Below are positions 10,008 to 60,994 of a stretch of 64,000 nt of DNA, one piece after another (positions within the stretch are counted from its first letter, which is position 1; the number at the start of each line of letters is the position of its first letter). The translations under genes were made by a program, and so were the position numbers. The notes beneath the pieces are model-generated. The model was given only the letters and a program-made list of their open reading frames with translations. It was not told where the DNA came from and searched no databases. Origin of the DNA: Escherichia phage vB_EcoM_G2494; sequence record MK327935.1; one strand, 5' to 3'.

Positions 10008-10017
10008 AATAAACCTC

Positions 10018-10581: not shown

Positions 10582-10598
10582 AATACAACCCTCATTAA

Positions 10599-14966: not shown

Positions 14967-15021
14967 AATATAATCCTCTCTAGATATGAAAAAGGGGCAC
15001 GTAGCCCCTTTACTACCATTG

Positions 15022-25862: not shown

Positions 25863-26443
25863 TTTAGTTTATGTTCCTCTAAAAATTCTTCAATTTCACC
25901 TTGCAGATCTTCCGCTTGTTGTTCCAGAATATCGCGAAATTCACCTACAGTCAAGCGGTAATCACATTTCACCAGTCGATGCGGGAGAATATACCCTTTA
26001 TACATTGTCTCTGACGCTTCCAGGAATACCCCACTATGCATGACAGAGATCCAACCTGTTAGCGTCAATGGAGTATTCGGAAAATAATACTTGCTGGATT
26101 GTTTCCACTGGACGAAAGCACCATATACAATCGGATTATATTCACCAACCACACTCTTAATAATGGATTCTACTTTGTCTTTTACAAAGTCGCCAATGTC
26201 CATAGTTATCATCAACTCTTTTGGATTAATGATTTTAAGGTAACGACGGTAGCCGTCATCATACCACATCTTAACAACTGACCGATCAATATTCGCTTTC
26301 AGATAGCCATAGATCGGATTCTTGTAATATGATTGTTTTAGTGTGTACGCGTGCACCAATTCAATAAAATATTCCATTGCTACCGAATCAGGATCAGCCG
26401 CGACCATAGTCGTATTCATAATATGTTCCTCGTTCAATTTCAT
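25859..26443 (-). CDS. hypothetical protein (46.2 position)
   Basis: 194-aa ORF between genes 47 and 46. Confidence 0.5.
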   Translation of the reverse strand: MKLNEEHIMNTTMVAADPDSVAMEYFIELVHAYTLKQSYYKNPIYGYLKANIDRSVVKMWYDDGYRRYLKIINPKELMITMDIGDFVKDKVESIIKSVVGEYNPIVYGAFVQWKQSSKYYFPNTPLTLTGWISVMHSGVFLEASETMYKGYILPHRLVKCDYRLTVGEFRDILEQQAEDLQGEIEEFLEEHKLK

Positions 26444-26711
26444 ATTGTTTCAGGTCTTCTAAAAGTTCATCCACTGCTTGTTTCAGTGTATGGCGTAGCG
26501 TAAAGTAATAGCTTTCATCAAATTCTATTTCCGCGCGAGGAATAGAGCGAAACTTGCACTTAACGGTAGTATCAGTGAGTCGCTTTTCGACCATCATCCG
26601 AACTTCTTCATGCTCTTTGGAATACCATACATCAACGGAGATCCCCTTGCGTCGAGCAAACATAGGCAATGCCGCATTAAATTCCATTACCTTTTGTGCA
26701 AGTGTTTTCAT
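26394..26711 (-). CDS. hypothetical protein
   Basis: 105-aa ORF. Confidence 0.4.
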   Translation of the reverse strand: MKTLAQKVMEFNAALPMFARRKGISVDVWYSKEHEEVRMMVEKRLTDTTVKCKFRSIPRAEIEFDESYYFTLRHTLKQAVDELLEDLKQYEIERGTYYEYDYGRG

Positions 26712-26971
26712 CGTACAGACTCCATAGACCCACGAGCAATAACATTCTGGGTAATATCAGCAACCTTACGAGATACGATGTTTGTTAGCCCATCTTTGGT
26801 GATATTTTCACGATCAAATGGGATTTCGTCATGAGTCCACAAACCATAGTTAGATCGAAATGATAGCATATACTGACCATCTCGCACAACCTCGAATACA
26901 TGGATCTTAGTGAATTTCGATAAACCTTCGTTGATTTCTTTCAGTGCATTAGTAATCATAACAACCTCCAA
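26708..26971 (-). CDS. hypothetical protein
   Basis: 87-aa ORF. Confidence 0.4.
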   Translation of the reverse strand: MEVVMITNALKEINEGLSKFTKIHVFEVVRDGQYMLSFRSNYGLWTHDEIPFDRENITKDGLTNIVSRKVADITQNVIARGSMESVR

Positions 26972-27013: not shown

Positions 27014-28039
27014 CTAACTTTTTGCGCTATTTACTTCGGCTAAAAGTTCATCAGAAATACGCTTGACCGCCGCAAGTTCTTCCGGTTCTAGGTTTTGTTC
27101 TTCCAGATATTCATAGACCATCTGAATAGTGCTTTTAACTTCAATAACACCTGTTTCCTGTGATGCGCTACTCTCCAGCTTATGGACCACTTTTAGCTTG
27201 TGTACAACGGCCTCTAACGCGCTTTCTAACTTAGTTAACCCATTATCAGCGACCGTTGCGATAAGACGCACACTAAGCCCCTTAAAGCGTTCTACATCGA
27301 TTTTATCATCTGACGGGTAAGTGATACGCACATGATAAGTTTTGTCATTCTGGATAAACTCCTTTTTGTGTGTATCGGTATCGAATACCCAAAAACCACG
27401 CGGATCGTTTTCGTCACCCGCCGTTAGTGTGTATGGTGTACCAATATACGTTACGTTACCGCCATCACTGATAGTATGAAAGTGACCCGAAAACACTTCA
27501 CGGTATTTCTTGAGGAAGTCCGCGCTATAACCTTCGGATTTTAGCCCTTTATAGAAATAGTAACCGGACAATTCCCAATGGCCTACACAATATTCGCTGA
27601 ATGAGTTTTGAATAAACTCTAAAACCTCTGATTTATTGTCATCACAAAACCACGGGAACAGATCAAATGATACACCATCAAAGGTAACTGTTTCCGGTTT
27701 ATCGATAACCTTAATGCAATCATACTGGCTTAACACTTCGCGCGGTGCGTTAGGCTGGATCTTGTTTCGTTTAAACATATCATGATTCCCGACCGTGATA
27801 TAACAAGTAATATCAGCCTCTTCCAGTAACGGGATGACCTTAGTACGGTTAAATTTCATGGTTTCATGGGTAATTGCTTTTCGGCAATCAAACCAATCCC
27901 CTGTTTGAATCCATGTCTTAATATTATGCTCTTTGGAGTATTCAACCGCTTTCTTGATGGTATCAAGAATATACTCGTGCACCCACGGATCATCGCCACC
28001 GATACCAGTATGCAGATCACCTAAAAGCAAAATTTTCAT
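27014..28039 (-). CDS. 47: recombination endonuclease subunit (SbcD/Mre11-like)
   Basis: 341 aa; phosphoesterase motifs (GDLH, GDWFD, GNHD, GHWE, GHFH) and collinearity with T4 gp47. Confidence 0.9.
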   Translation of the reverse strand: MKILLLGDLHTGIGGDDPWVHEYILDTIKKAVEYSKEHNIKTWIQTGDWFDCRKAITHETMKFNRTKVIPLLEEADITCYITVGNHDMFKRNKIQPNAPREVLSQYDCIKVIDKPETVTFDGVSFDLFPWFCDDNKSEVLEFIQNSFSEYCVGHWELSGYYFYKGLKSEGYSADFLKKYREVFSGHFHTISDGGNVTYIGTPYTLTAGDENDPRGFWVFDTDTHKKEFIQNDKTYHVRITYPSDDKIDVERFKGLSVRLIATVADNGLTKLESALEAVVHKLKVVHKLESSASQETGVIEVKSTIQMVYEYLEEQNLEPEELAAVKRISDELLAEVNSAKS

Positions 28040-28083
28040 AGTCTCTTCCTCTCTTCGTTTTCGATGCTCTCACTATATCACAG

Positions 28084-37541: not shown

Positions 37542-38036
37542 TTATTTTACCAGTTCTGCTAATTCTTTTTCCGCCGCTTCCAGTTCAGCTTTAAGCTGTT
37601 TAATCTCTTGTCGCTTCTTATTAGCGGCTTCCTGCTTACTATTTCGGATAACCTGATCTAGATACAACTCCCAATCCTGAATATTTTTGATAATGTATCC
37701 GTCAACATTAATTGGTCGGAGATTCAGTACAGCTTCCAGTTTAGTCGCAAAAACTTTAATTGCTGGTGTGAAGTATTCATATTCGTTATCTTCAAACCAA
37801 TAACCTAGACTTGCATTATCAATACGAAGACGAAGTTTAAGATCAAGGTCTTTATCGTCGGTGTAAAGATCTTTCACCTGCCCCATCGAGCTAACAACAA
37901 CTTTAAAACGAATTTTATCTACACCGCCAAAAACATCTTCAAGAATATCAGCAATTGAGCTATTAGCGCAAGATTGGTCGCTGAATGCGTCAAGGTTTTC
38001 TTTAGTTACAGTATACCAAACATCTTGTACCCACAT
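37542..38036 (-). CDS. hypothetical protein, C-terminal coiled coil
   Basis: 164 aa; GAGAGGATTATATTATG start context; ends in KQLKAELEAAEKELAELVK helix. Confidence 0.5.
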   Translation of the reverse strand: MWVQDVWYTVTKENLDAFSDQSCANSSIADILEDVFGGVDKIRFKVVVSSMGQVKDLYTDDKDLDLKLRLRIDNASLGYWFEDNEYEYFTPAIKVFATKLEAVLNLRPINVDGYIIKNIQDWELYLDQVIRNSKQEAANKKRQEIKQLKAELEAAEKELAELVK

Positions 38037-38065
38037 AATATAATCCTCTCGTTGTTAAGTGGGAG

Positions 38066-38095: not shown

Positions 38096-39269
38096 CACTA
38101 ACTTTTTTCTTTACTGCTTTCACCTTCTGGCGAATTGCTCGAATCTCTTCGATCTCTTTTTCAGTCTCTTTAACAATTTCTTTGCGATTCTGAATATCTG
38201 TATCGAGATTATCATCAAGTTTAGGCAGCATGTCAATCAAGAACTTTTTAAAGTCTTTCAGGTTTCGGATAACAGCACCTTCACCCATTACCGCAACACC
38301 CACACCATCCGGCAGATCACCAAACAGCTTAACCAGTTCAGACAGATGATCATGATCTTCTAGTGCTTCTTCCGGTTCAGATGGCAGTTCAACAAAGTTA
38401 TAACGTTCATCATTGCTGATCAAGTGATACCAGCAAAGCCCGAAAGATTTCGGTGTATATTCTACACCATCAATTTCAACCGCGTCAACACTTCCATAAT
38501 CATCTACTTTAGTTACCTTAAATCCTTGTCCCAGCTTTTGAACAATTTCAACAACATGACTTGATACAGTTTCAGCGGTAAACCAATATGGCAAATTATG
38601 CTGATTTGGCTTGTAGCGTTCACCTACTTTAAATCTCTGACCAGCCGCTTGCATAGAATGAAATTGTTGTTTCGTGATTTCCGCGAAGTATTCAAATTCG
38701 CCACCATCAAACACACAAGCCCATTGATCACAAAAACGATCTGCCTTAACAGTTTCACCTTTCGCGGTGATCGTGGTAGCTGATCCGTGCAATTCTTCTT
38801 CAACTAAAAAGCCATATTCGACAAAATCAACAAGTTTCATAGCTTCTTTGTGATCTGGATCATGCTCTCCCCAGAATCGCTTAAATTCTTGCAAACCTTC
38901 TGGGGTAAACGAATAACATTTACCTTTTTCAAAGTAAGTCGGCATTGCATCCTCTTTCTTGTTCATCGCTTCGTATGCCTCTTTTGAGATGCGTTTAAAG
39001 TATTTACGCTCACTGTGCATAATCATAGTAGCCCAATAATCCACAATATCATTAGCGGAATAAACTACATCTCCAGCTTCAATAGTAATAACATGACCGT
39101 GGTCATCTTTTTCTAATACTTTAAAGCCCTTTTCTACGATTTCAGCAACCCGAATATGACCACGGCGCGAAGCATCGGTCAGAATAATTGAATAGCGAGA
39201 AAAGTCTAGAAACTCATCTTTACCGCCTTCACGGAATGCATAGTAATGACCTTCAAAGAATTTAGCCAT
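38091..39269 (-). CDS. hypothetical protein, paralog family B (three internal repeats)
   Basis: 392 aa; three ~95-aa repeats; ERKYFKRISK motif shared with ORFs 39326 and 39907; charged C-terminal helix. Confidence 0.5.
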   Translation of the reverse strand: MAKFFEGHYYAFREGGKDEFLDFSRYSIILTDASRRGHIRVAEIVEKGFKVLEKDDHGHVITIEAGDVVYSANDIVDYWATMIMHSERKYFKRISKEAYEAMNKKEDAMPTYFEKGKCYSFTPEGLQEFKRFWGEHDPDHKEAMKLVDFVEYGFLVEEELHGSATTITAKGETVKADRFCDQWACVFDGGEFEYFAEITKQQFHSMQAAGQRFKVGERYKPNQHNLPYWFTAETVSSHVVEIVQKLGQGFKVTKVDDYGSVDAVEIDGVEYTPKSFGLCWYHLISNDERYNFVELPSEPEEALEDHDHLSELVKLFGDLPDGVGVAVMGEGAVIRNLKDFKKFLIDMLPKLDDNLDTDIQNRKEIVKETEKEIEEIRAIRQKVKAVKKKVSA

Positions 39270-39299
39270 AATATAATCCTCTCGTTGTTTAGACGGGAG

Positions 39300-39330: not shown

Positions 39331-39892
39331 CGTTAAATGACTTTTGGATCTCTTTCAGTTCAGCTACTTTATCGGCGCTGAATTTAGCGTAGGTATCATG
39401 TCGAATAATTTCACTTTCAAGAAAGGTTTCCAGCCGAGTTCTATTTTCAATAAGGAACTCTTTCAGGTCTTCCGCGTTCTTGATAAAGATTTTATTGTCG
39501 GTAATGTCATCTTCAATCGCAAAGGAGATAGAGCGAACTTTACCAAACAAGTTAATCAGATCTTCCAGAGATTCTTCTTTCTTAACTGGTTTCATTTCTT
39601 CAAACTGCTTTTTAGTGATACGTTTAAAGTATTTGCGCTCGTTTGCAGCAATCAGAACAGATGCACCTTCATACTCATGAGTTTCTACCAGATACACACG
39701 CCCCATCGCATCAACAGTTAGAACTTTAAAGCCGTTACAAAGCACGTCATACAAGAACTTATTATGTTGCGGACATCGTTTGATAAATTCCTCTGCGGAC
39801 TCAGCATTACGGAAAGTGTAATAACGACCTCGTTCAAAAACAGCATCAGTTGAAGACTTAGCCGGATACAATTTATACGTTTTCTGTACCAT
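39326..39892 (-). CDS. hypothetical protein, paralog family B
   Basis: Trimmed to MVQKTYKLY... with GAGGATTATATTATG context; ERKYFKRITK motif. Confidence 0.5.
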   Translation of the reverse strand: MVQKTYKLYPAKSSTDAVFERGRYYTFRNAESAEEFIKRCPQHNKFLYDVLCNGFKVLTVDAMGRVYLVETHEYEGASVLIAANERKYFKRITKKQFEEMKPVKKEESLEDLINLFGKVRSISFAIEDDITDNKIFIKNAEDLKEFLIENRTRLETFLESEIIRHDTYAKFSADKVAELKEIQKSFNA

Positions 39893-39906
39893 AATATAAT
39901 CCTCTA

Positions 39907-43092: not shown

Positions 43093-43401
43093 TTATTTCA
43101 CGTTAACGCCGTTATCAATCCAGCCGACGCTATTTGGTTTAACAGTTTTACCATAGGATGCATACTTAATCAAGCATGGTTTAACATCATTATCAAATCT
43201 TCCTAAACGTACTCCCAAATCAGGAATATCCATGTATGCGGCTTTATATCCCCATGTACCGTATTCAGAATCAATCTCAACCGGACGGCCTTTAAAAGCA
43301 TACACTACACCGTGACGGTCAACGATAACATAGCGATAGCCAGCCGGAAGATACACAGTTTCGCCGTAAACTTTAACTGGAGTAGCAGAAGAGATAAACA
43401 T
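43093..43401 (-). CDS. hypothetical protein
   Basis: Trimmed to MFISSATPV... with GAGGATTATATTATG context. Confidence 0.45.
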   Translation of the reverse strand: MFISSATPVKVYGETVYLPAGYRYVIVDRHGVVYAFKGRPVEIDSEYGTWGYKAAYMDIPDLGVRLGRFDNDVKPCLIKYASYGKTVKPNSVGWIDNGVNVK

Positions 43402-43435
43402 AATATAATCCTCACATCGTTCATTTGATGCGGTC

Positions 43436-43470: not shown

Positions 43471-43809
43471 TTAAAAATCTTCTTCCGGTTTATATCGACC
43501 GTCATCGACTGGTTTTGGACTGAATCCTTTATGCGTGCGCGGCTTCGCTTCCGGTTTACCAGCAATCATCAAACCAAAACATTTCAGCCCCTTATAACAC
43601 ATAACAATATCAACCACGGTCCACGTTATAGGCCATACGATTGCAGCAATACAAAATGCTCCTATATCGACCTCTTTGGTGTCCTTGTCGAATCTGGCGT
43701 ACAAGCAGAATACTAGATACGAGATCATTGCACCAGTAGTCCAGATATAAAGCACATTAACAATATCTTGTGTTGTCACATTATCCTCCTTACATGTCTT
43801 GTAGTGCAT
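43471..43809 (-). CDS. hypothetical membrane protein
   Basis: Hydrophobic segments; start uncertain (listed ORF overlaps upstream gene by ~100 nt). Confidence 0.35.
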   Translation of the reverse strand: MHYKTCKEDNVTTQDIVNVLYIWTTGAMISYLVFCLYARFDKDTKEVDIGAFCIAAIVWPITWTVVDIVMCYKGLKCFGLMIAGKPEAKPRTHKGFSPKPVDDGRYKPEEDF

Positions 43810-44068
43810 AAAAGCATTTTTCTTCATAGTCATAGAAAATGTCAAAGTATGCTTTTTCCACATACTCGCCATTAATCCAAGCGGTAGTAACAATCAGAGT
43901 GGTCCAGTTAGATCCGCTCTCAACGGTAAAGGTTTTAATACCCAGCTTCGCTGCCAAGTCGAACGCAAACCGGACGCAACCACGGCAGGAAGTGATATTG
44001 GAAGTTTTGATTTTAAAGCCACCGCGAGTTTTAGAAATTTCTACTTTAGCGAAAGACAGGTTGCTCAT
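43790..44068 (-). CDS. hypothetical protein
   Basis: Trimmed to MSNLSFAKVE... preceded by conserved leader ...AGGAGAATCAAA-ATG; related to ORF 46449..46670. Confidence 0.5.
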   Translation of the reverse strand: MSNLSFAKVEISKTRGGFKIKTSNITSCRGCVRFAFDLAAKLGIKTFTVESGSNWTTLIVTTAWINGEYVEKAYFDIFYDYEEKCFYALQDM

Positions 44069-44104
44069 TTTGATTCTCCTTAAGAAAGTGTGTTTCGTTT
44101 TGAT

Positions 44105-44140
44105 GTGTGTAGTATAAGGGATCACCGATCCCCTGTCAAC
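44105..44140 (-). promoter_or_regulatory. sigma70-type early promoter with spacer stem-loop (PeSL-like)
   Basis: TTGACA - 17 nt - TATACT; spacer contains GGGGATC/GATCCCC inverted repeat. Confidence 0.45.
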
Positions 44141-44148
44141 AACTTTTT

Positions 44149-44478
44149 TTATGATTTTAGTGAATTAACCACTACATCAAAATGATGTACAGAGCACACC
44201 TTACGAAACACATATTCATCATGTTTCGGAATCGCCCCCAACCGCTTTATTTCGCTCGCCGACACGATAAACCGTTTATCAGGTGCATTTACCTTATATG
44301 CTTCAACAACGCACGGAAAACGCGTTTTAGAGAGTTCGGGATAGTTTTCTGACTCCATCAGGACAATGAATACCCTATTACATTGATTGTAGAATCCGGT
44401 TTTTGATTTCATCAAGTTTTCTTCTCTGTGAAATTCGTGCAATCTTCCTTTCATGATTTCGTTGGTTCTTGTCTTCAC
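44149..44478 (-). CDS. hypothetical protein
   Basis: 109-aa ORF; overlaps upstream ORF by ~100 nt, true start probably internal. Confidence 0.4.
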   Translation of the reverse strand: MKTRTNEIMKGRLHEFHREENLMKSKTGFYNQCNRVFIVLMESENYPELSKTRFPCVVEAYKVNAPDKRFIVSASEIKRLGAIPKHDEYVFRKVCSVHHFDVVVNSLKS

Positions 44479-44719
44479 AGTTTACCCACTCAACAAGGTC
44501 TTTACCTAACTCGAAAGCCCATTCTCGGTCCTGCTTTACGTTTTGTAGGTATGGACTTTCTGACACTCGACGCAGTGATCTTGTCGTAACAAGAATGATC
44601 CCAGGAATGTTCGGATGTTCCTTTCCATATACAATAGGACGCGAGTCACTATCAATACCTTGTAAGAAGGTGTATCCTGAATCACTTAGAATCATATACT
44701 TTTTCATTTCGTTCATCAC
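44378..44719 (-). CDS. hypothetical protein, paralog of 44716..44973
   Basis: 113 aa; shares D-x-Y-x-FL-x-G ... LVTT-x-LR pattern with neighbour. Confidence 0.4.
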   Translation of the reverse strand: MMNEMKKYMILSDSGYTFLQGIDSDSRPIVYGKEHPNIPGIILVTTRSLRRVSESPYLQNVKQDREWAFELGKDLVEWVNCEDKNQRNHERKIARISQRRKLDEIKNRILQSM

Positions 44720-44973
44720 AGTTTCCTCAACCAGTTATTCAAGCGAGTAAACCATGACGATTTTCGTGCTTTTTCTGTTTTACGGGCAAATCTATCCAAG
44801 AAACACCATTCATAATCATCATTGTAAATTCCCTCAAAGGAAGCTCCAGCTTTGCGTAATTCTTTGGTTGTTACCAAGAAACTATCATAGAATGGAGTTC
44901 CTCGAACAATGATCGGAAGTTTAACACCTTTCAAGAAAGAATAATCGGCATCATTAATAATTTCAATTTTCAT
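44716..44973 (-). CDS. hypothetical protein, paralog of 44378..44719
   Basis: 85-aa ORF. Confidence 0.45.
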   Translation of the reverse strand: MKIEIINDADYSFLKGVKLPIIVRGTPFYDSFLVTTKELRKAGASFEGIYNDDYEWCFLDRFARKTEKARKSSWFTRLNNWLRKL

Positions 44974-45218
44974 TTTACATTATCTCCATAGATCTTTCCA
45001 TCAATATCAATTTCACCAGCGCGAACATCTAGGATAAGATGCGGTAGGTGTATGCAGTTTTCCCACCCTACGCGCTTCATTTCTGAAACAGTGACGTAAG
45101 CCCACCCGTTCGCTGTAATAAAGTCTACTTCAACCTTGAGAGGAAAGCAAGACTTTTCTATGTCTTCGAATCCGATAATGTGTTTTGTCGTTGAATATGG
45201 AATATATCCGATGATCAT
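44970..45218 (-). CDS. hypothetical protein
   Basis: 82-aa ORF. Confidence 0.4.
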   Translation of the reverse strand: MIIGYIPYSTTKHIIGFEDIEKSCFPLKVEVDFITANGWAYVTVSEMKRVGWENCIHLPHLILDVRAGEIDIDGKIYGDNVK

Positions 45219-45649
45219 TTTGTGATCTCCTTATACTCAACACACCATAAGCGGGTAGCCCATGATAAACGCTCATAACGCTGACAGAAATCGGACCATA
45301 GATATTGTGTACCGTTCGGCATAGTTGAAATATGCGTTTTCTCTCCAACTTTCACGAAAGAAGTATTCGATTTTGTGATCTCGACCGGAGTATATCCGAA
45401 AGCGGGTTCCAAGCCAACATCTGAACTAAATGCTAATTTAACAGAATTTGTTTTTCTGACCGCTGTCCGGTTTCCTTCTGGGTATAGCACAGCAGGTTTA
45501 GCGCCTAAGCGGATAAACTCAGTGTTTTTAATAAACAGAATATCATGATAACCGTCATATTCCGACACTTCCATAGTAACAGGAAAATCGACATGTTTTA
45601 AACCTGGTGGATCTCGCATATCATGAAATGTAGCCATCAACTTTTTCAT
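45215..45649 (-). CDS. hypothetical protein, paralog pair C
   Basis: 144 aa; C-terminal block ITKSNTSFVKVGEKTHISTM...QYLWSDFC...LSWA shared with next ORF. Confidence 0.45.
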   Translation of the reverse strand: MKKLMATFHDMRDPPGLKHVDFPVTMEVSEYDGYHDILFIKNTEFIRLGAKPAVLYPEGNRTAVRKTNSVKLAFSSDVGLEPAFGYTPVEITKSNTSFVKVGEKTHISTMPNGTQYLWSDFCQRYERLSWATRLWCVEYKEITK

Positions 45650-45659
45650 TCTATATTCC

Positions 45660-45905
45660 TCACTCTTCTGTAATTACTTCATATTCAATTTTCCATACAT
45701 CAATCGCCCAGCTTAAAAGCTCATACGATTTACAGAAAGATGACCAAATATACTGTTTTCCGTGCATCGTTGTTATGTGTGTATGCTCACCAACTTCAAC
45801 GAAAGACATATTTGACTTTGTGATAACTATAGGAATGCGACCGAAAGGTGGCGGTATTACTGATTCGTTGGTCTTCATTCTATATTCCTCACTCTTCTGT
45901 TTCAT
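45660..45905 (-). CDS. hypothetical protein, paralog pair C
   Basis: 81 aa; ITKSNMSFVEVGEHTHITTM...QYIWSSFC...LSWA. Confidence 0.45.
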   Translation of the reverse strand: MKQKSEEYRMKTNESVIPPPFGRIPIVITKSNMSFVEVGEHTHITTMHGKQYIWSSFCKSYELLSWAIDVWKIEYEVITEE

Positions 45906-46086
45906 TTCTTTTATATGGTACTATAACAGGATTAATACAGCAAGCACCAATTACGTTATGAGCACCACAATTTAAGCATTTATAATCATGGAACTTATTA
46001 AGGAATCGCCCGAACTCATAACCGACTAACGCCGCGTGTACTTGAGTCTCGATCTCATCCATGTCAGCCAATGTTTTAACCTTCAT
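45889..46086 (-). CDS. hypothetical protein
   Basis: Trimmed to MKVKTLADM... with GAGGATTATATTATG context; CxxC...C cluster. Confidence 0.4.
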   Translation of the reverse strand: MKVKTLADMDEIETQVHAALVGYEFGRFLNKFHDYKCLNCGAHNVIGACCINPVIVPYKRNETEE

Positions 46087-46096
46087 AATATAATCC

Positions 46097-46387
46097 TCAA
46101 ATACTGGTTTTGCGAAGATGGTCATTACATGCTTTTAATGCATCAGTCGAGGTGTCATAGCGAGTATTATCATAGCACCAATAACCATCTGTCAACTGAT
46201 AAATTAATCCATCCTTTTTAGCGTCGATGAAAGACAATTCTTTGAAAGTTTCTACTTTCTTTGCTGATACTCCACGGTCACGGCGTTTATAGAGTTTAGC
46301 TAAAACGCGTTCAGCTTGTTCCTCTTTATCGCCAGACAGATCCCAGATGACGTTTCTGATATGCTTGATTAATTGTTCAGTGGTCAT
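46097..46387 (-). CDS. hypothetical protein
   Basis: 96-aa ORF. Confidence 0.45.
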   Translation of the reverse strand: MTTEQLIKHIRNVIWDLSGDKEEQAERVLAKLYKRRDRGVSAKKVETFKELSFIDAKKDGLIYQLTDGYWCYDNTRYDTSTDALKACNDHLRKTSI

Positions 46388-46414
46388 ATTTGATTCTCCT
46401 TAGTTGGTATGGTT

Positions 46415-46446
46415 ATCATTATACGGGGATTTCTCACCGTGTCAAC
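46415..46446 (-). promoter_or_regulatory. sigma70-type early promoter
   Basis: TTGACA - 16 nt - TATAAT upstream of ORF 46097..46387. Confidence 0.5.
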
Positions 46447-46448
46447 AA

Positions 46449-46670
46449 TTAAATGATCTCTGCTTCACCGTTAAGGAAGAAGGACCATGTTTTGTTAGGA
46501 TAACGAAGCGCCCATGATTCAGCAGTTTTAACACCAGCTTCGAACAATTGACGGCTGGTTACTTTAGCCATACCATCTTCGATGGCAACGTTTTCAATAA
46601 TCATCGGGTACTTAGCGCCACGCATGAAACCGAAGCCAGCGGAAGATTTGATGATTTTAACAGTTGCCAT
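46449..46670 (-). CDS. hypothetical protein
   Basis: Trimmed to MATVKIIKSS... preceded by conserved leader ...AGGAGAATCAAAA-ATG. Confidence 0.5.
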   Translation of the reverse strand: MATVKIIKSSAGFGFMRGAKYPMIIENVAIEDGMAKVTSRQLFEAGVKTAESWALRYPNKTWSFFLNGEAEII

Positions 46671-46706
46671 TTTTGATTCTCCTAGAAAGTGTCGTGTTTC
46701 GATGGG

Positions 46707-46739
46707 TGTATTATGCAATAACACCGGATAGCTGTCAAC
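46707..46739 (-). promoter_or_regulatory. sigma70-type early promoter with conserved leader
   Basis: TTGACA - 17 nt - CATAAT followed by leader ACACCCATCGAAACACGACAC. Confidence 0.5.
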
Positions 46740-46756
46740 ACTTTCTAAGAAAAATT

Positions 46757-47041
46757 TTAAATTAATCGAATATAACCAAGAATTTCAGCGCCTTTAGCCA
46801 GTCCTAAAACTTCCCATTCAAGGTCGCCGTAGTCATAATTTGCAACCATCAACTGACCATTTTTCATGCAGCAATCATGAGAGAAAATTTGCCCCGCATA
46901 AACTACGATAGTAATAAACTTTCCTGATTCTGGCGGTGTGGAAGACAAAGCGACCATATGACCATTCAGCTTAGTAACCAGTGATGGAACAATAAAATTC
47001 GGGCTTACCTTAATACCGTTAAATTCGTTTGTGTCTTTCAT
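46757..47041 (-). CDS. hypothetical protein
   Basis: 94-aa ORF. Confidence 0.45.
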   Translation of the reverse strand: MKDTNEFNGIKVSPNFIVPSLVTKLNGHMVALSSTPPESGKFITIVVYAGQIFSHDCCMKNGQLMVANYDYGDLEWEVLGLAKGAEILGYIRLI

Positions 47042-47388
47042 GCCAGACCTCGCAAAACACTAATAGCATAATCATGCTGGTTATTCATAATATCAATTGC
47101 ATTGTGATAACGAGCTAAACCATCAAGGATAAATTCTTGTTTATCCTGTTTCAGTTTGGTATCACGCGCAGCCATAAGAGCATCAAGAACAGGTCCAAAG
47201 TGATTATCTAATTCATCTTCGGTTGCAATGTTTCCTATTGCCTCGTCGATCCGTGATTCTAATGCTTGCTTTTCGTTGATCACTTGCTGGGTATATTCCA
47301 ACACATCAAGAATATCGCGGGTAACGTCGCCATGATAAGGTATTCCCGCATGAAGATGATCAATTAATCGCTGAATATCAATGTTCAT
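47038..47388 (-). CDS. hypothetical protein
   Basis: 116-aa ORF. Confidence 0.45.
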   Translation of the reverse strand: MNIDIQRLIDHLHAGIPYHGDVTRDILDVLEYTQQVINEKQALESRIDEAIGNIATEDELDNHFGPVLDALMAARDTKLKQDKQEFILDGLARYHNAIDIMNNQHDYAISVLRGLA

Positions 47389-47723
47389 TTGTAACCCTCC
47401 TCTGAAAGCACATCCCAGATCGTTGAGTCAAGGTGCATTAAATTCCACATAATAGAGTCATAACTACCGAAGCCAGAAGTAAAAATTACATCACACTGGC
47501 GATATGTCTTATGAAAATCGGTGGCTGTCTCTGCATCAATCGGCATATCGTCACCTGAAAGCACCAGACATTTAAGAATCATAACTCTGTTAGCCGTTGG
47601 CGCTTGCTTAGTCTTTTCAGCATATTTTTCGATGATCCGTTTTGCCTTTTCTTCTTTGATACGTCCAGACCAAATCCGGTTTCGGTATTGATTCATAATA
47701 ATTTCAATCACATCATTTTGCAT
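47385..47723 (-). CDS. hypothetical protein
   Basis: 112-aa ORF. Confidence 0.45.
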   Translation of the reverse strand: MQNDVIEIIMNQYRNRIWSGRIKEEKAKRIIEKYAEKTKQAPTANRVMILKCLVLSGDDMPIDAETATDFHKTYRQCDVIFTSGFGSYDSIMWNLMHLDSTIWDVLSEEGYK

Positions 47724-47922
47724 TCTTCACGGTCTCCATAATTGTTTTGTAAGCCAGCTTAAGATGATCACCGAAAAACTTTGCAGTGTTACCCTTCGGA
47801 TCACGGAGCATGGTTTCTACGATCTCATCGGCAGTAACAATTTCTCCTTTCTTTGCTGCATGTTCTACCATATACTTCAAAGTTTCTTCGGAAGCAAGTG
47901 CTGCGGCTACTGGATTAATCAT
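47713..47922 (-). CDS. hypothetical protein
   Basis: 69-aa ORF. Confidence 0.4.
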   Translation of the reverse strand: MINPVAAALASEETLKYMVEHAAKKGEIVTADEIVETMLRDPKGNTAKFFGDHLKLAYKTIMETVKNAK

Positions 47923-47950
47923 TTTGGTTCTCCTTTGTTGTCGATGTGTG

Positions 47951-47981
47951 CATTATGCTATACCATATTCCGGTTGTCAAC
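47951..47981 (-). promoter_or_regulatory. sigma70-type early promoter
   Basis: TTGACA - 17 nt - CATAAT immediately downstream of terminator hairpin. Confidence 0.5.
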
Positions 47982-47985
47982 ACCT

Positions 47986-48020
47986 AAAAACGAAAAAGCC
48001 ACCCTTTCGGATGGCTTTTT
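47986..48020. terminator. intrinsic terminator (hairpin flanked by A-run and T-run)
   Basis: GCCACC...GGATGGC hairpin with T-run on both strands; ends the ~260 nt ORF-free 3' region after ORF 48251..48649. Confidence 0.5.
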
Positions 48021-48250
48021 GATTATATTTTATTCACGTCCATTTGTATAGTAGTGTTTGAATCGACCTTTGCTAAACTCGTTAAACATAGTAACCAATT
48101 CACCATCCCTTTCCAATGATAAACCTTCCTCGTCTTAGACGGGTCTTCCGATTAGGTAGTAATTGAACACGCGAAAGTATGAGGAAGCCAAATAGTTGTG
48201 TTAATGCTAGTATTCTTTTACTTCTGGTATGTATCCCACAGTGACTAACA

Positions 48251-56729: not shown

Positions 56730-56982
56730 AGAATGAAATTTTCACAGACACAATTTTACCATAAGTGAAGAATGAATATACATTATCGAGATATTCAACG
56801 TCACCTACAATCACATCAAACTGCGGATCAGCAACCGCCGCAACATATTCTACCAGTTCATCAAGAGAATGCAACTTAATTTCATCAATTCGGCTGTATT
56901 TGGTTGCATCTTTGATTTTAAAACCACGTTCTTTCAGCTTATCAATTAGAATTTCACGCGGAGTTTCAAACAGTTTGCTCAT
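56662..56982 (-). CDS. hypothetical protein
   Basis: 106 aa; GAGGATTATATTATG start context. Confidence 0.45.
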   Translation of the reverse strand: MSKLFETPREILIDKLKERGFKIKDATKYSRIDEIKLHSLDELVEYVAAVADPQFDVIVGDVEYLDNVYSFFTYGKIVSVKISFCENVEVLASEPEKPTDNGPSAA

Positions 56983-57003
56983 AATATAATCCTCACATTA
57001 AAT

Positions 57004-57204
57004 CTAAAATTTGTTAACGACGAATTGCATAATTAGACTAATCACAAACATTGCAAACCAAGTATAAATGCAACAGATAAAAGCTACATACAATTCAATC
57101 TGGTCAGAGAATACACCGGGTAAAAGCATTAGCAAAATAACAACAGTAAAGACGCTAGCGATACCCGCAACAAAACCAATATCATTTTTACTAATCGTCA
57201 TCAA
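57004..57204 (-). CDS. small membrane protein
   Basis: 66 aa, two TM helices. Confidence 0.4.
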   Translation of the reverse strand: MMTISKNDIGFVAGIASVFTVVILLMLLPGVFSDQIELYVAFICCIYTWFAMFVISLIMQFVVNKF

Positions 57205-57410
57205 GTCACCGTTTTGTAAAGAAACACAATAAAATCCAAGACAAGAAAGACAGTGTAAATGATCATCGTCAAGACAGTAAACACTGTCAAATTTTCATCG
57301 TTAGTTAATTCATAGTCGCCCATCCATACAATCACAAGATATAGCATTGAAAGAATGGAAGCACCTACGAAGTTAAAAAACATATTCTTGAGCGTCATAT
57401 TAACAACCAT
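57201..57410 (-). CDS. small membrane protein
   Basis: 69 aa, two TM helices. Confidence 0.4.
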   Translation of the reverse strand: MVVNMTLKNMFFNFVGASILSMLYLVIVWMGDYELTNDENLTVFTVLTMIIYTVFLVLDFIVFLYKTVT

Positions 57411-57582
57411 CGCGGCTTAAGTCAACAGCAATTGCATACAGCATAATGAATATGCTAGCAGATCCGAGAATCAATACACCCTCACATTTTGAAACTCGCT
57501 CATCAAAATGTAACATTATCCATCCGAGGATGTTAAAGGCGCAGACCGCGCCTATGTTCGCTAACCAATTAATCTTTTTCAT
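57400..57582 (-). CDS. small membrane protein
   Basis: 60 aa, two TM helices. Confidence 0.4.
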   Translation of the reverse strand: MKKINWLANIGAVCAFNILGWIMLHFDERVSKCEGVLILGSASIFIMLYAIAVDLSRDGC

Positions 57583-57590
57583 AATATACC

Positions 57591-57917
57591 TTAGAAAGAA
57601 ACAGTTTTCAAGAAATCCAGATTTTCAGTACCGAAAACAGAAAAGTAGTGTTTTCCTTTTTCGGTTTTAGAGAAAGCGATTGTCTTCTCTACATGGTGAC
57701 GGAAGCCAGACAGACGATCACCCAGGTCAAGGCGGCAAGCGTAAGTAGTGCCGTTTTCGAAAGTAACCTCGATTTGAGTTTTGTCATATTCGCTTTCATA
57801 GGCTTTTGCTGCCGCGTCCTGTGCTTTACGCTCGAAGTCTTCGAAGTGGAATACTTCGTTTGCTTTAGCGAATACAGAAGATTCAGAGAAGATAACTTTA
57901 ACAGATACTGGTTTCAT
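57591..57917 (-). CDS. hypothetical protein
   Basis: 108 aa; preceded by conserved leader ...AGGAGTATCAAA-ATG. Confidence 0.5.
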   Translation of the reverse strand: MKPVSVKVIFSESSVFAKANEVFHFEDFERKAQDAAAKAYESEYDKTQIEVTFENGTTYACRLDLGDRLSGFRHHVEKTIAFSKTEKGKHYFSVFGTENLDFLKTVSF

Positions 57918-57958
57918 TTTGATACTCCTTAGTAGTTCGTGTTTCGTTTCGATGGGTG

Positions 57959-57989
57959 TATTATGCTATACACCCTATCGCGTGTCAAC
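57959..57989 (-). promoter_or_regulatory. sigma70-type early promoter with conserved leader
   Basis: TTGACA - 17 nt - CATAAT then leader ACACCCATCGAAACGAAACAC. Confidence 0.5.
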
Positions 57990-57996
57990 AACTTTT

Positions 57997-58185
57997 TTAG
58001 TCTTTTTTCAAAATTTTTAAGGCAGTTTCTACAGCACCTTTCCAACCTTCCCACATAATGGACATAGTAAGGAAGTTAAAGCACCCGCAGGAATCAACCT
58101 TTTTAGAGATAAACCATTCAACAAATCCTTCGCTCATACCATGCTCTTTAGCGGATTCGCGTAATTGTTCAATTTGGTCTTCCAT
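57997..58185 (-). CDS. hypothetical protein
   Basis: 62-aa ORF. Confidence 0.4.
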   Translation of the reverse strand: MEDQIEQLRESAKEHGMSEGFVEWFISKKVDSCGCFNFLTMSIMWEGWKGAVETALKILKKD

Positions 58186-58207
58186 AGTATCACCTCAACA
58201 CTTAACG

Positions 58208-58402
58208 TTATTCAAACTCAAACGGTCTATTCAACCTATTGTAAAAGTACATATAACAAGCAAAATTATGTTTTGGCTGTACCGTATCAGATAGACACGC
58301 TTTTACAGCCTCGCGGTCCGATGGGTCTACACCCTCAGCTTTAAGTAATGCTAAAATCTGGTTATAGCGTACTCTTAGTTGTACTAATGGTTTATCCCCC
58401 AT
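58208..58402 (-). CDS. hypothetical protein
   Basis: 64-aa ORF. Confidence 0.4.
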   Translation of the reverse strand: MGDKPLVQLRVRYNQILALLKAEGVDPSDREAVKACLSDTVQPKHNFACYMYFYNRLNRPFEFE

Positions 58403-58411
58403 ATTACCCCC

Positions 58412-58633
58412 TTATAGTTGATCAGCGATGTAAGCGTGACAAGCGCGGAGTTTCATTAATGCACTACCTTTCACTTCGCCTACGATGTTCATAACTTCTA
58501 AGCGGTCGGATGGATTCATCTTAGAGCACCAGATCTGGTTAGCCAATTCCAGTTTACTCATATTTGGTTCCATCTCAAACAGTTCACGCTCAAAGTCGAT
58601 AATTTCTTTTGCTGCGTCTTTAAAGTTAATCAT
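58412..58633 (-). CDS. hypothetical protein
   Basis: 73-aa ORF. Confidence 0.4.
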   Translation of the reverse strand: MINFKDAAKEIIDFERELFEMEPNMSKLELANQIWCSKMNPSDRLEVMNIVGEVKGSALMKLRACHAYIADQL

Positions 58634-58654
58634 TTTGATTCTCCCGTTTCGTTG

Positions 58655-58691
58655 ATGTTTGTATTGTAGGGGAGTTATCCTCCCCTGTCAA
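58655..58691 (-). promoter_or_regulatory. sigma70-type early promoter with spacer stem-loop (PeSL-like)
   Basis: TTGACA - 17 nt - TACAAT; spacer holds GGGGAG/CTCCCC inverted repeat. Confidence 0.45.
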
Positions 58692-58699
58692 CACTTTTA

Positions 58700-58885
58700 T
58701 CAGAAATATGCAATATAGTTTGCCAGTCCTACAGAGTCATCATTCGGCATTGCTTTTACTGCCAGTTCAAACCCTGCTTCAACTTTCTGTTTAGCGGATT
58801 CTTCGTTATAACCCCAGATTACCAGAATAGCTACTACGTTTTCTTTGCTTACTGCTTTCAGTGCTTTAGTGATGCGACGTGCCAT
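58700..58885 (-). CDS. hypothetical protein
   Basis: 61 aa; conserved leader ...ACGGAGAATCAAATT-ATG. Confidence 0.4.
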   Translation of the reverse strand: MARRITKALKAVSKENVVAILVIWGYNEESAKQKVEAGFELAVKAMPNDDSVGLANYIAYF

Positions 58886-58930
58886 AATTTGATTCTCCGT
58901 TTAAGAAAGTGTGTTTCGTTTCGATGGGTG

Positions 58931-58961
58931 TATTATGCTATAGGCCGGATCTGGTGTCAAC
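58931..58961 (-). promoter_or_regulatory. sigma70-type early promoter with conserved leader
   Basis: TTGACA - 17 nt - CATAAT then ACACCCATCGAAACGAAACAC. Confidence 0.5.
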
Positions 58962-59162
58962 AACTTTTTTAAAAAATTTTAGGCAATAAAAAAGCCACTC
59001 CGAAGAGTGGCTTATAGGGAAGGTAGCGAATCTTCCTTGTCTCCAACCTGCTAGCGGCCTAGCAAGTGAATGCTTTAGCGTACCGGATCGCCCACATACG
59101 CTGTAATAAATGCGGCTAGGTGACGTCCAAATCATTCTAACCGCGCTGTCTTTAGTTCACTA

Positions 59163-59381
59163 TTATTTATATCGCTTTCTCTCGCGACGTTTTTGATCTT
59201 CTTCCTTGATAGAGTTAAATGCATCAAAAAGACACATGAAACTAATAATAAACATAACCGTATTTTCTATGATATCCCACGGCTTCGCATCAGTACAGAT
59301 CCCCCAAACGGTAAGAAATGCAAATAGTGCAGAAGAGATCACAAGCATGATACTTGCTAAGATATAAAAAGTCATTTTCAT
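59163..59381 (-). CDS. small membrane protein
   Basis: 72 aa, two TM helices, basic C-terminus. Confidence 0.4.
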   Translation of the reverse strand: MKMTFYILASIMLVISSALFAFLTVWGICTDAKPWDIIENTVMFIISFMCLFDAFNSIKEEDQKRRERKRYK

Positions 59382-59572
59382 GGTTTTACCTCAATTCTTC
59401 GATATTCATCACACATCCACGCAGTAAGCAAGAATCCCAACACATAAGCAACAAAATACGTTAATGCTTCTTCTGGTTCGGTGCTATGCGCCATCATCAG
59501 ACCAGCGAGAAAGGTCTTAACAATTACATTTAAAATAATTAGCCACGCAAATAATTTCATCGTTTGCCCCAT
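59378..59572 (-). CDS. small membrane protein
   Basis: 64 aa, two TM helices. Confidence 0.4.
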   Translation of the reverse strand: MGQTMKLFAWLIILNVIVKTFLAGLMMAHSTEPEEALTYFVAYVLGFLLTAWMCDEYRRIEVKP

Positions 59573-59796
59573 TTCGGTCGAGTCTTTTCAAACTTATACA
59601 TTCCGTAACAATCTCGAATCATCCACGTAACAAGAGCACCAGTCAACACAGACAATACACAGAAGAAGTAAAACGGTCCGGTTGCATTATCAACATGAGC
59701 AAGCCAGGTAAAGAAAACACATGCTAAGAATGTGAAGAACATCATAAAACACAAGAAAGCAAAATATTTTATGCTACTCATAGCGCCACCATACAA
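59557..59796 (-). CDS. small membrane protein
   Basis: 79 aa, two TM helices. Confidence 0.4.
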   Translation of the reverse strand: MYGGAMSSIKYFAFLCFMMFFTFLACVFFTWLAHVDNATGPFYFFCVLSVLTGALVTWMIRDCYGMYKFEKTRPKWGKR

Positions 59797-59884
59797 CAGA
59801 TCATAAGAAAACCCAACGCAATAAGAATTGCATCAAATTTAGTGAACTCCGGTCCACCTATCAACATCATTCGTTCTATTTCGT

Positions 59885-60127
59885 TCATAGCGTACAAAGC
59901 CATTTAAAAGCACCACATAAAGCGAGCAGAATACTAGGTATAAACGAGATCAAAACAAGGTTGCAAAAATCATCTAAGGTAACACCGGAATAGCTACCTA
60001 CTGTAACAACACCGATCATCAGACACAGAAAGAAAACAAATGCAATCAGAAACAAAGTATTACTAAACAGTTTAGTGATCATTAGACACCCCACGACGAT
60101 CAATTTCAAAAACTTTTTTATCATCAA
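59885..60127 (-). CDS. small membrane protein
   Basis: 80 aa, two TM helices. Confidence 0.4.
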   Translation of the reverse strand: MMIKKFLKLIVVGCLMITKLFSNTLFLIAFVFFLCLMIGVVTVGSYSGVTLDDFCNLVLISFIPSILLALCGAFKWLCTL

Positions 60128-60275
60128 CGAAGCATGTCACAACTGCCTCGTTGACTTCCGCAAATTGTTGTGTTACCCACTTAAGGTCAGAGCGAAACAA
60201 TGTTCTATTAATAACAAATGTTTTACCGCTCTTATCCTTACCCATAAATTTTGCTTTAACCATATCAAATTCCAT
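60072..60275 (-). CDS. hypothetical protein
   Basis: 67-aa ORF. Confidence 0.4.
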   Translation of the reverse strand: MEFDMVKAKFMGKDKSGKTFVINRTLFRSDLKWVTQQFAEVNEAVVTCFVDDKKVFEIDRRGVSNDH

Positions 60276-60293
60276 ATTATCACCTTATTTGCT

Positions 60294-60443
60294 AATCGCT
60301 AAACCCAATCCGAAGAGAGCACCCGATGCTACAGTATACCCGAAAGTTTCAAAGGCAGTAAAGATATCTAAGCCACCAGCTAACAGAGTTGCAGTAAACA
60401 GAGTACCAGCTACGAACATAAAAGTTTTACCGATGAATTTCAT
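60294..60443 (-). CDS. small membrane protein (unlisted ORF)
   Basis: ~50-aa hydrophobic ORF (MKFIGKTFMFVAGTLF...) behind conserved leader AGGAGAATCAAA-ATG; below table cutoff; coordinates approximate. Confidence 0.35.
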
Positions 60444-60469
60444 TTTGATTCTCCTTTCGTTTGTTTGTG

Positions 60470-60503
60470 GGGGTATCTTACTACCCCCGTTTCATGTTGT
60501 CAA
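60470..60503 (-). promoter_or_regulatory. sigma70-type early promoter with dyad symmetry (PeSL-like)
   Basis: TTGACA - 17 nt - TAAGAT; inverted repeat GGGGGTA/TACCCCC around -10. Confidence 0.45.
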
Positions 60504-60509
60504 CTATTT

Positions 60510-60884
60510 TTAAGAATATTTTACTTCGTCTACAATGTCTTTCATGACATTGATTTCCATTCCGGTCAGAACACGTTGGAACATGTGCTGCACATACGCT
60601 TTCAGGTATTCATTTGATGGCTTGCTATCGAAAGTCTTTTTAGTGTAGTAGTCATCACCGAAAGCTACTGTAATTACATTTTCGTCGTCGTTCCAAGCGA
60701 TATAAGCAAATTTGCCGTTATCCCAGAAGCGAGCACTAATTGCTACTTTTGTTGAATCGAATCCTACTTCGCTGTGAGATTCAAGAACTACTTGCGTACC
60801 AGTTTCTTTATGAATGTAGTAGCGGGATACTAAGTCAAAGTTACGGGTGTAGTGACATTCGAATTTATCTTTAAACATCATCAT
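60510..60884 (-). CDS. hypothetical protein
   Basis: Trimmed to MMMFKDKFE... behind conserved leader ...AGGAGAATCAAA-ATG. Confidence 0.45.
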   Translation of the reverse strand: MMMFKDKFECHYTRNFDLVSRYYIHKETGTQVVLESHSEVGFDSTKVAISARFWDNGKFAYIAWNDDENVITVAFGDDYYTKKTFDSKPSNEYLKAYVQHMFQRVLTGMEINVMKDIVDEVKYS

Positions 60885-60920
60885 TTTGATTCTCCTAAGT
60901 GTGTTTCGTTTCGATATGTG

Positions 60921-60951
60921 CATTATGCTATAGTCGTTTATGGTTGTCAAC
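60921..60951 (-). promoter_or_regulatory. sigma70-type early promoter with conserved leader
   Basis: TTGACA - 17 nt - CATAAT then leader CACATATCGAAACGAAACAC. Confidence 0.5.
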
Positions 60952-60960
60952 ACCTAAAAA

Positions 60961-60987
60961 CAAAAAACCCCGAAAAATTTTTCGGGG
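60961..60987 (-). terminator. intrinsic terminator after Acb1-like gene
   Basis: CCCCGAAAAATTTTTCGGGG hairpin followed by TTTTTTGTTTTT on minus strand. Confidence 0.55.
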
Positions 60988-60994
60988 TATAGAA

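Follow-up and report, generated by a model that had tools for sequence, protein, structure and literature searches.

Why should one and the same leader of about 45 nt stand in front of several small genes that are otherwise unrelated? The question is raised by a stretch of 64,000 nt of Escherichia phage vB_EcoM_G2494 (record MK327935.1; hereafter the window, meaning the whole of this stretch), in which a preliminary description had noticed such a leader before five or more genes, starting near 44068, 46670, 57917, 58885 and 60884, and had proposed that it is either a target of the RegB endoribonuclease or part of a recombination-prone cassette. The answer that we regard as probable is that the repeated leader is the downstream, promoter-proximal half of the promoter-early stem-loop (PeSL) cassettes of RB49-type phages, and that it is itself modular, with a core that may belong to the start of transcription and a separate Shine-Dalgarno (SD) block that may be cut by RegB.

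The recurrence of the leader is borne out. A 21-mer, ACACCCATCGAAACGAAACAC, is present in five minus-strand copies with 0 to 3 mismatches (44110-44090, 46709-46689, 57959-57939, 58931-58911 and 60921-60901), against 0 expected from 100 shuffles. When the 150 nt surrounding each of the five sites are aligned and a promoter scan is added, a layout common to all of them emerges, namely an AT-rich stretch, TTGACA, 17 nt of spacer, CATAAT (TATACT in one copy) and the 21-mer, followed by a linker of 5-12 nt, the block GGAG(A/T)ATCAAA and an ATG, and the five ATGs (44068, 46670, 57917, 58885 and 60884) match RB49 gene calls mapped onto the window. Mean pairwise identity among the copies is 1.00 in the -35 hexamer, 0.40 in the 17-nt promoter spacer, 0.87 in the -10 hexamer, 0.77 in the discriminator, 0.89 over positions +1 to +15 and 0.96 in the SD block (GGAG plus 7 nt), and only 0.26-0.28 over coding nucleotides 4-93, while the five encoded proteins show no significant mutual similarity in BLASTP (best E = 0.18). 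Similarity thus extends well beyond the SD and the promoter hexamers, confinement to which would have refuted the observation, and the leader is indeed kept independently of the coding sequence. The estimate of five or more copies was likewise correct, for the leader recurs in shortened or degenerate form at about 13 further minus-strand promoters of the window (for instance at 47922, 52565, 58633, 60443, 40179, 8854 and 2773), and the five long copies are a subset of this larger family.

The setting of these elements is a familiar one. The window shares 96-97% identity with RB49, ECD7 and FL20 (Krischvirus, Straboviridae), and the annotation of RB49 gives a run of small minus-strand hypothetical genes, plus tk, regB, dmd and others. 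According to Arbiol 2010 (PMC2839356), RB49 and phi1 contain about 51 PeSLs per genome, whose conservation spans about 100 bp and takes in the preceding gene's stop codon, AT-rich sequence, a stem-loop that may occupy any of five positions with respect to the promoter, the sigma-70 promoter itself, which is close to consensus, and an ORFan's SD and start codon; the same paper reports experimental evidence of promoter and terminator activity, and of recombination between PeSLs that yields mini-circles, some with crossovers between the -10 and the SD. In the window, all five copies have 11 of 12 matches to TTGACA-N17-TATAAT with a 17-nt spacer, the sequence upstream is A/T-rich with AAAGTTG abutting the -35, a stem-loop is clear at four of the five (c44068, c57917, c58885 and c60884, each cassette being named after its start codon), and the 3' end is formed by the SD and start codon of genes annotated as hypothetical in RB49. 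Promoter-proximal genes number 24 among the 122 mapped in the 64 kb and cluster at 43-48 kb and 57-61 kb, and differences from relatives fall at these sites (the indel of the g38 cassette, a promoter swap at 46445 and an insertion at the c57917 orthologue of phage Skers, all described below). Judged by their sequence, the flagged elements are PeSLs, an already described class all of whose sequence-level hallmarks are found here; they resemble the PeSLs of RB49 and phi1 and those of other T4-like phages (Comeau 2014, PMC4122927) in lineage, architecture, hyperplastic location and association with indels. As far as the accessible text of these two reports goes, the elements were aligned on promoter and SD, the segment from the -10 to the SD was not singled out, RegB was not mentioned and the presence of the leader core outside the T4-likes was not noted.

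What, then, does the segment between the -10 and the SD represent? Early promoters of RB49 favour C at -3 to -1, and their predicted consensus agrees with mapped 5' ends (Nolan 2006, PMC1524935); in T7, the annotated starts of A1 (cc|ATCGAGAGG) and A3 (ac|ATGAAACGACAG) likewise are an A preceded by CC or AC and lie 7 nt past the -10. By analogy with that consensus and with the T7 annotation, we infer that the window's transcripts have the A of CATCG, 7 nt past the -10, as their first base, so that ACACCC would be the discriminator and the mRNA would begin AUCGAAACGAAACAC; the core itself sets in 5 nt past the -10, which gives a predicted transcript beginning with AUCGAAACGAAAC. The likeness to T7 extends into the transcript, in that A1 begins ATCGA and A3 begins ATGAAACGA, the first 10 nt of the motif minus one base, although the T7 leaders differ from those of the window in being long, in having no SD behind them, in losing the similarity after +5 to +9 and in not forming repeated cassettes. 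Data on initially transcribed sequences (PMC5961368) indicate that a purine-rich stretch and the lack of a YG step near +6 favour promoter escape; the core lacks a YG step at +5 to +7 and is purine-rich in this region, which is compatible with such an effect and not decisive.

The same core stands in the same register in phages of other families. The exact 16-mer CATCGAAACGAAACAC has 76 matches in IMG/VR, 40 of them combining a -10-like hexamer with an SD and a start codon, and 43 of the 76 are preceded, at a spacing of exactly 5 nt, by a TAnnnT hexamer, while motif and ATG are 12 to 24 nt apart; since the phasing to the -10 is exact and the distance to the ATG varies, the core would appear to be tied to the transcription start and not to the SD. 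A BLAST search of GenBank phages with the consensus returned 557 records, from phages of Klebsiella, Escherichia, Vibrio, Enterobacter, Salmonella, Citrobacter, Yersinia, Cronobacter and Erwinia, and the context was verified in TR3, PGN590, tunus and GaoY1-9D (Drexlerviridae, T1-like), KP27 (Slopekvirus), Panisse (Ounavirinae, Felix-O1-like), the Stenotrophomonas phage BUCT626 (Beaumontvirinae) and Vibrio phage D483 (unclassified in its record), where the motif adjoins an Alt-like gene. TR3 has ten promoters of a type of its own, ATAGCAC-N5-TG(C/T)TAA followed by the -10, about seven of which run into CATCGAAACGA or a close variant, and one more such leader follows a promoter without the box; no RegB homologue was found in TR3, and the window does not have the T1-type upstream box. 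As an observation apart, this box, which marks a promoter type peculiar to T1-like phages, is near-palindromic, stands where a -35 would be, some 19-21 nt before the -10, and has the look of an operator or of a site recognized specifically by the phage. That the core follows upstream promoter parts specific to each lineage argues against the copying of whole promoters and for a constraint on the start and the initially transcribed region.

Bacterial genomes offer little of the kind. In a scan of one genome per species, only 9 of the 124 CATCGAAACGAAACAC matches listed had promoter and SD context, 5 of these being Vibrio contigs that resemble one orthologous locus, and most of the matches listed look like chance; a search of 5,426 complete E. 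coli genomes with the 51-nt consensus (E <= 10) gave no match, a result that excludes just matches of about 20 nt or more. On seven Vibrio chromosomes a conserved locus shows this 16-mer at the same exact 5-nt distance from a -10 (TATACT) and downstream of a Fur-box-like sequence (TGATAATTTCAT..); it is the sole phage-like bacterial context among the matches listed, and may be a chance occurrence. Our literature searches returned no paper on the motif string and nothing relevant on promoter motifs of Drexlerviridae, and the -10 phasing, the spread over unrelated virulent families and the presence at junctions between families were not found in the literature searched, so that they appear to be new, if as a modest lead. 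We would tentatively go one step further, to a generalization that we rate at somewhat under an even chance: (C)AUCGAAACGAA(ACAC), the first 12-16 transcribed bases locked 5 nt past the -10, could be a pan-phage early-promoter element and a universal homology linker for the trade in cassettes, of which the Skers insertion described below would be an instance, with a specific role at host RNA polymerase (RNAP) or at the 5' end of the mRNA, in at least four to five unrelated virulent lineages infecting Gammaproteobacteria (several Straboviridae genera, Drexlerviridae, Ounavirinae, Beaumontvirinae and probably jumbo phages), and essentially absent from bacterial genomes in that context. Short, conserved sequences repeated before unrelated genes have precedents in the boundary or linker sequences of lambdoid phages and in the 13-bp start-associated sequences of Cluster K mycobacteriophages, which lie at gene boundaries or translation starts and have been proposed as regulatory signals and/or crossover points; those are other sequences, of other hosts and phage groups, and none is tied to a sigma-70 transcription start.

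Among the alternatives, the one that fares best holds that the A/C-rich core acts purely at the level of RNA, as a translational enhancer, as a standby site for ribosomal protein S1 or as a guard of the 5' end against RppH and RNase E. The core is unstructured, A/C-rich, poor in U and lies 12-30 nt from the start codon, and S1 binds single-stranded stretches of about 11 nt (PMC1702504), all of which would suit such a role; an internal RNA element would nevertheless have no need of the exact 5-nt phasing to the -10 in 43 of 76 matches (a 5'-terminal role is compatible with it), and T7 A1 and A3 have similar starts with the nearest start codon hundreds of nucleotides away. An enhancer that pairs with ribosomal RNA was rejected, for the motif shows no special complementarity to E. 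coli 16S rRNA and pairs with it worse than shuffled sequences do (duplex of -12.7 kcal/mol against a shuffle mean of -16.4). A purely RNA-level function is on balance unlikely, though it is the rival that we would take most seriously.

On the preferred reading, the leader of the PeSL cassettes would also be a place where genomes recombine, and comparisons with relatives are in line with this. The adhesin cassette g38 of RB49 (RB49 45330-46198) is absent from the window at the 46445 junction, where the promoter spacer and the discriminator are not orthologous to those of RB49 and the leader is identical from CATACC onward. An additional minus-strand open reading frame (ORF) without RB49 counterpart (45660-45905) is flanked by a 27-nt direct repeat, ACAGAAGAGTGAGGAATATAGAATGAA (45900-45874 and 45671-45645), and by its sequence the segment 45645..45900 is a cassette indel through repeated SD/start sequence. 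Exchange seems to reach across families as well. The gene starting at 58885 has homologues of 72-79% DNA identity in about 100 T1-like phages, which keep CATAAT, 5 nt and CATCGAAACG and differ on the -35 side and in the SD, and the genes starting at 58633 (58412-58633) and 58402 (58208-58402) are 83-85% identical in DNA to genes of GaoY1-9D (Nouzillyvirus, T1-like), a homology that ends at the SD/ATG, with a T1-type promoter and leader upstream; the homologues of these three small early genes indicate recent gene flow between Krischvirus and Drexlerviridae. The most telling case of recombination would be the c57917 orthologue of Skers, which reads from a Krischvirus-type promoter into CATCGAAACGA, then a 47-aa ORF, a T1-type promoter, CATCGAAAC, and the normal SD and gene. 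The inserted 232-nt cassette lies between two copies of CATCGAAAC (MW748999, 149306-149534), and its T1-type promoter, AATAGCACTTTTTGTTAAAA-N19-TATAGT-TACCT, is 86% identical in its promoter part to T1-like phages; in the phage collection the 47-aa ORF found no DNA homologue, the T1-type promoter alone being matched. By comparison this is a foreign cassette set between two copies of the shared core, and the suggestion that the core marks crossover points for the exchange of gene cassettes appears to be new. The proposal of a recombination-prone cassette hence finds support in the PeSL identity and in the indels and promoter swaps against relatives; movement of cassettes is a matter of experiment for the PeSLs of RB49 and phi1 (PMC2839356), and of comparison in the window.

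Could recombination by itself account for the likeness, as a by-product of recent duplication or gene conversion that homogenizes leaders without any sequence-specific function? PeSLs do recombine with one another (PMC2839356), and promoter variants have been swapped between orthologous sites. Conversion tracts, however, would not be expected to skip the 17-nt spacer (40% identity) amid flanks of 77-89% (-10, discriminator and +1 to +15), and the core is found in register behind lineage-specific -35/-10 contexts in unrelated families. Constraint is also visible among orthologues. Eleven Krischvirus genomes, drawn from GenBank phage records (an IMG/VR search for related loci gave ECD7 alone), were aligned over 57.4-61.2 kb with five cassettes covered; the leader has 15 variable sites in 165 (nucleotide diversity, pi, 0.023), third codon positions 153 in 923 (0.058), the promoter spacer 11 in 85 (0.040) and the -10 hexamers 1 in 30 (0.006). 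The leader is thus less variable than third codon positions, taken as synonymous sites (Fisher p = 0.014), which indicates moderate purifying selection on it. Homogenization without function is in our estimate improbable, and clearly more so than a role confined to RNA.

The proposal of a RegB target fares differently for the two ends of the leader. The target of T4 RegB with S1 has been defined as 11 single-stranded nucleotides, GGAGRAYARAA, starting at GGA and with no requirement for upstream sequence (Durand 2006, PMC1702504); in the T4 consensus, GGAGAAUAAAA, GGA is invariant, G is preferred at position 4, A is favoured at positions 6, 8, 10 and 11, and C does not occur at position 9 (PMC1702504). 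All five copies in the window have GGAG, and the SD block, GGAGAAUCAAA, agrees with GGAGRAYARAA in 10 of its 11 positions, the exception being a C at position 8; in individual cassettes, GGAGAATCAAA scores 10 of 11 with that same C and GGAGTATCAAA (c57917) 9 of 11 against the T4 consensus. The pattern GGAGRAYNRAA has 10 matches in the window, all on the minus strand and all ending 0-2 nt before a start codon, where 1.48 are expected by chance. Sites of this type precede 11 of the 24 promoter-proximal genes and 3 of the 98 others (p = 5e-7), a difference confounded by the fact that the cassettes are paralogous copies, and the same confounding applies to the presence of any GGAG in the SD (17/24 versus 25/98). 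The context is also that of a RegB site, a single-stranded SD of a predicted early mRNA in a genome that encodes regB (51803..52225, minus strand, start mapped from RB49). The window's regB has an SD of the GGAU type, GGATAATAAA(A) / GGAUAAUAAA(A), and RB49 RegB has been reported to cleave the GGAU SD of its own gene (PMC3014915). Cleavage of the cassette SDs by RegB is therefore plausible on pattern grounds: like the T4 sites (PMC1702504), they have GGAG in the SD of early genes, a single-stranded setting and regB in the genome, and the 7-mer after GGAG is A-rich and fits the T4 pattern in part; they differ in the C for A at position 8, and they make up just the last 11 nt of the leader. A second repeated translation-initiation region, GAGGATTATATT-ATG, stands in eight exact minus-strand copies before unrelated genes (2107-2121, 14964-14978, 38034-38048, 39267-39281, 39890-39904, 43399-43413, 46084-46098 and 56980-56994); as it uses GAGG and not GGAG it would not be a RegB-type site, and the genes behind it may form another regulatory class.

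It is another matter to regard the entire 45-nt leader as a RegB recognition element, in which the 21-nt motif would help RegB and S1 to find and cut GGAG. The presence of regB in the window, the 10 of 11 fit of the SD block and the single-stranded leader favour such a view, but the defined site requires nothing upstream of GGA, the 12-16 nt core is present in TR3, without a RegB homologue, and in other non-T4 phages, and in the 43 of 76 viral matches with a promoter context it is phased to the -10 and not to GGAG, its distance to SD and ATG varying. The 21-nt motif, which lies at or upstream of the predicted start, is not a RegB determinant, and we give a RegB element of this length slightly less credit even than homogenization; what stands of the original proposal is the SD block. 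Least probable by far is regulation in cis by a structured RNA (a riboswitch, a thermosensor or an attenuator) or in trans by a small RNA that targets the leader, for which sequence conservation and nothing further speaks; Rfam 15 gave no family match in the window at the gathering threshold, the linker from core to SD varies in length and sequence, and the five leaders, taken from the start to coding position +30, are nearly free of structure (minimum free energies of -2.1 to -5.1 kcal/mol) and fold worse than shuffles (z-scores of +0.7 to +1.6), so that this candidate was rejected.

The individual cassettes, all on the minus strand, show how these parts are laid out. Cassette c44068 (44066..44139) has its -35 TTGACA at 44139-44134, a spacer hairpin, GGGGATCGGTGATCCC, the -10 TATACT at 44116-44111, a predicted transcription start at 44104 and GGAGAATCAAA at 44079-44069 before a coding sequence of 92 aa (43790-44068). 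In c46670 (46668..46738) the -35 is at 46738-46733, the -10 CATAAT at 46715-46710, the predicted start at 46703, GGAGAATCAAA at 46682-46672 and the coding sequence at 46449-46670 (73 aa). Cassette c57917 (57915..57988), with its -35 at 57988-57983 and its -10 CATAAT at 57965-57960, has an 8-bp hairpin, GGGTGTAT/ATACACCC, across the -10 and the discriminator, a predicted start at 57953, GGAGTATCAAA at 57928-57918 and a coding sequence of 108 aa (57591-57917). Two cassettes are headed by a terminator hairpin followed by a T-run: c58885 (58883..59013; hairpin 59013-58992, -35 58960-58955, -10 58937-58932, predicted start 58925, GGAGAATCAAA 58898-58888, coding sequence 58700-58885, 61 aa) and c60884 (60882..60988; hairpin 60988-60967, -35 60950-60945, -10 60927-60922, predicted start 60915, GGAGAATCAAA 60895-60885, coding sequence 60510-60884, 124 aa). 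The roughly 200 nt between the stop of the gene starting at 59163 and the c58885 promoter (58960-59163) hold that hairpin and no convincing gene, a 65-aa ORF at 58938-59135 that overlaps terminator and promoter being probably spurious. Members with a short leader comprise 58631..58691 (TTGACA-GGGGAGGATAACTCCCC-TACAAT-ACAAACATCAACGAAACGGGAGAATCAAA-ATG), 60441..60503 (TTGACA-N17-TAAGAT-ACCCCCACAAACAAACGAAAGGAGAATCAAA-ATG, with a stem GGGGGTA/TACCCCC overlapping the -10), 47920..48020 (a terminator hairpin upstream at 48020-47993, then TTGACA-N17-CATAAT-GCACACATCGACAACAAAGGAGAACCAAA-ATG), 46385..46445 (TTGACA-N16-TATAAT-GATAACCATACCAACTAAGGAGAATCAAAT-ATG) and 52563..52625 (TTGACA-N17-TAATAT-ACCCCCATCGAAACAACAAAGGAGTATTAAA-ATG).

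The window differs from RB49 elsewhere too. An insertion of 1.1 kb at 17830-18956, in the region of the DNA polymerase (gene 43), contains a 286-aa minus-strand ORF (17971-18831) with an HNH-like motif, and gene 43 itself seems to be divided between an N-terminal ORF (18938-20146, 402 aa) and a C-terminal portion. A further difference involves positions 10001-10590 of the window and 26365-26931 of RB49: the window has an insertion of 590 nt that includes a 68-aa ORF (10018-10224) and has a tblastn match of 43% identity to the HNH/AP2 endonuclease of RB49; conversely, at about 28036-28040 the window lacks p040, an HNH endonuclease gene of RB49.

Taken as a whole, the proposed model reads along the minus strand from the stop of the upstream gene through an AT-rich region, a stem-loop, TTGACA-N17-(C/T)ATAAT and ACACCC to the presumed start at the A of CATCG, from which 37-46 nt of unstructured A/C-rich leader would lead to the SD block and the ATG of a small ORFan. 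The first module, from -6 to about +15, would be a start-site and initially-transcribed element in register with the -10, common to sigma-70-type promoters of unrelated virulent phages and probably kept by selection for very strong and uniform immediate-early expression; its advantage may lie in efficient use of the start site and escape from a near-consensus promoter, and in a 5' end free of structure. The second module, the SD block fitting the RegB/S1 consensus, would provide strong loading of ribosomes and a later shut-off of early mRNAs by RegB. Because the same sequence stands before many unrelated genes and in co-infecting phages, it would in addition serve as a preferred site of homologous crossover, this repeated homology allowing ORFan cassettes to be shuffled within and between phage genomes. 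We hold this model, PeSL cassettes with a modular leader made of a start-site core, an SD block and a crossover site, to be likely, with good though not full confidence, and several points weigh against it. The transcription start rests on analogy, and promoter strength, RegB cleavage and recombination in the window are read from sequence; c46670 has just a weak 5-bp stem, overlapping the -10; the fit to the data on initially transcribed sequences is loose, with CG steps at +3/+4 and +8/+9 of the core, whose conservation moreover reaches +15 and beyond, farther than promoter escape alone should need. At position 8, for which T4 RegB sites have a strong preference for A, the SD block has C, the enrichment of RegB-type sites carries the confounding already mentioned, and the sharing of the core across families could partly reflect horizontal transfer instead of independent selection.

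For the window itself these results are mostly housekeeping, since the class of cassettes has already been published. The repeated leader would account both for the uniform immediate-early expression of dozens of ORFans and for the plasticity of the region in which they lie. Beyond the window, a start-phased core behind very different -35/-10 contexts in T4-like, T1-like, Felix-O1-like and other virulent phages points to an unrecognized constraint at host RNAP or at the 5' end of the mRNA, and short homology at the starts of transcripts would be a concrete mechanism for gene flow between unrelated lytic phages, while the core may help, as a simple tag, to recognize early promoters and the borders of cassettes in newly sequenced phages.

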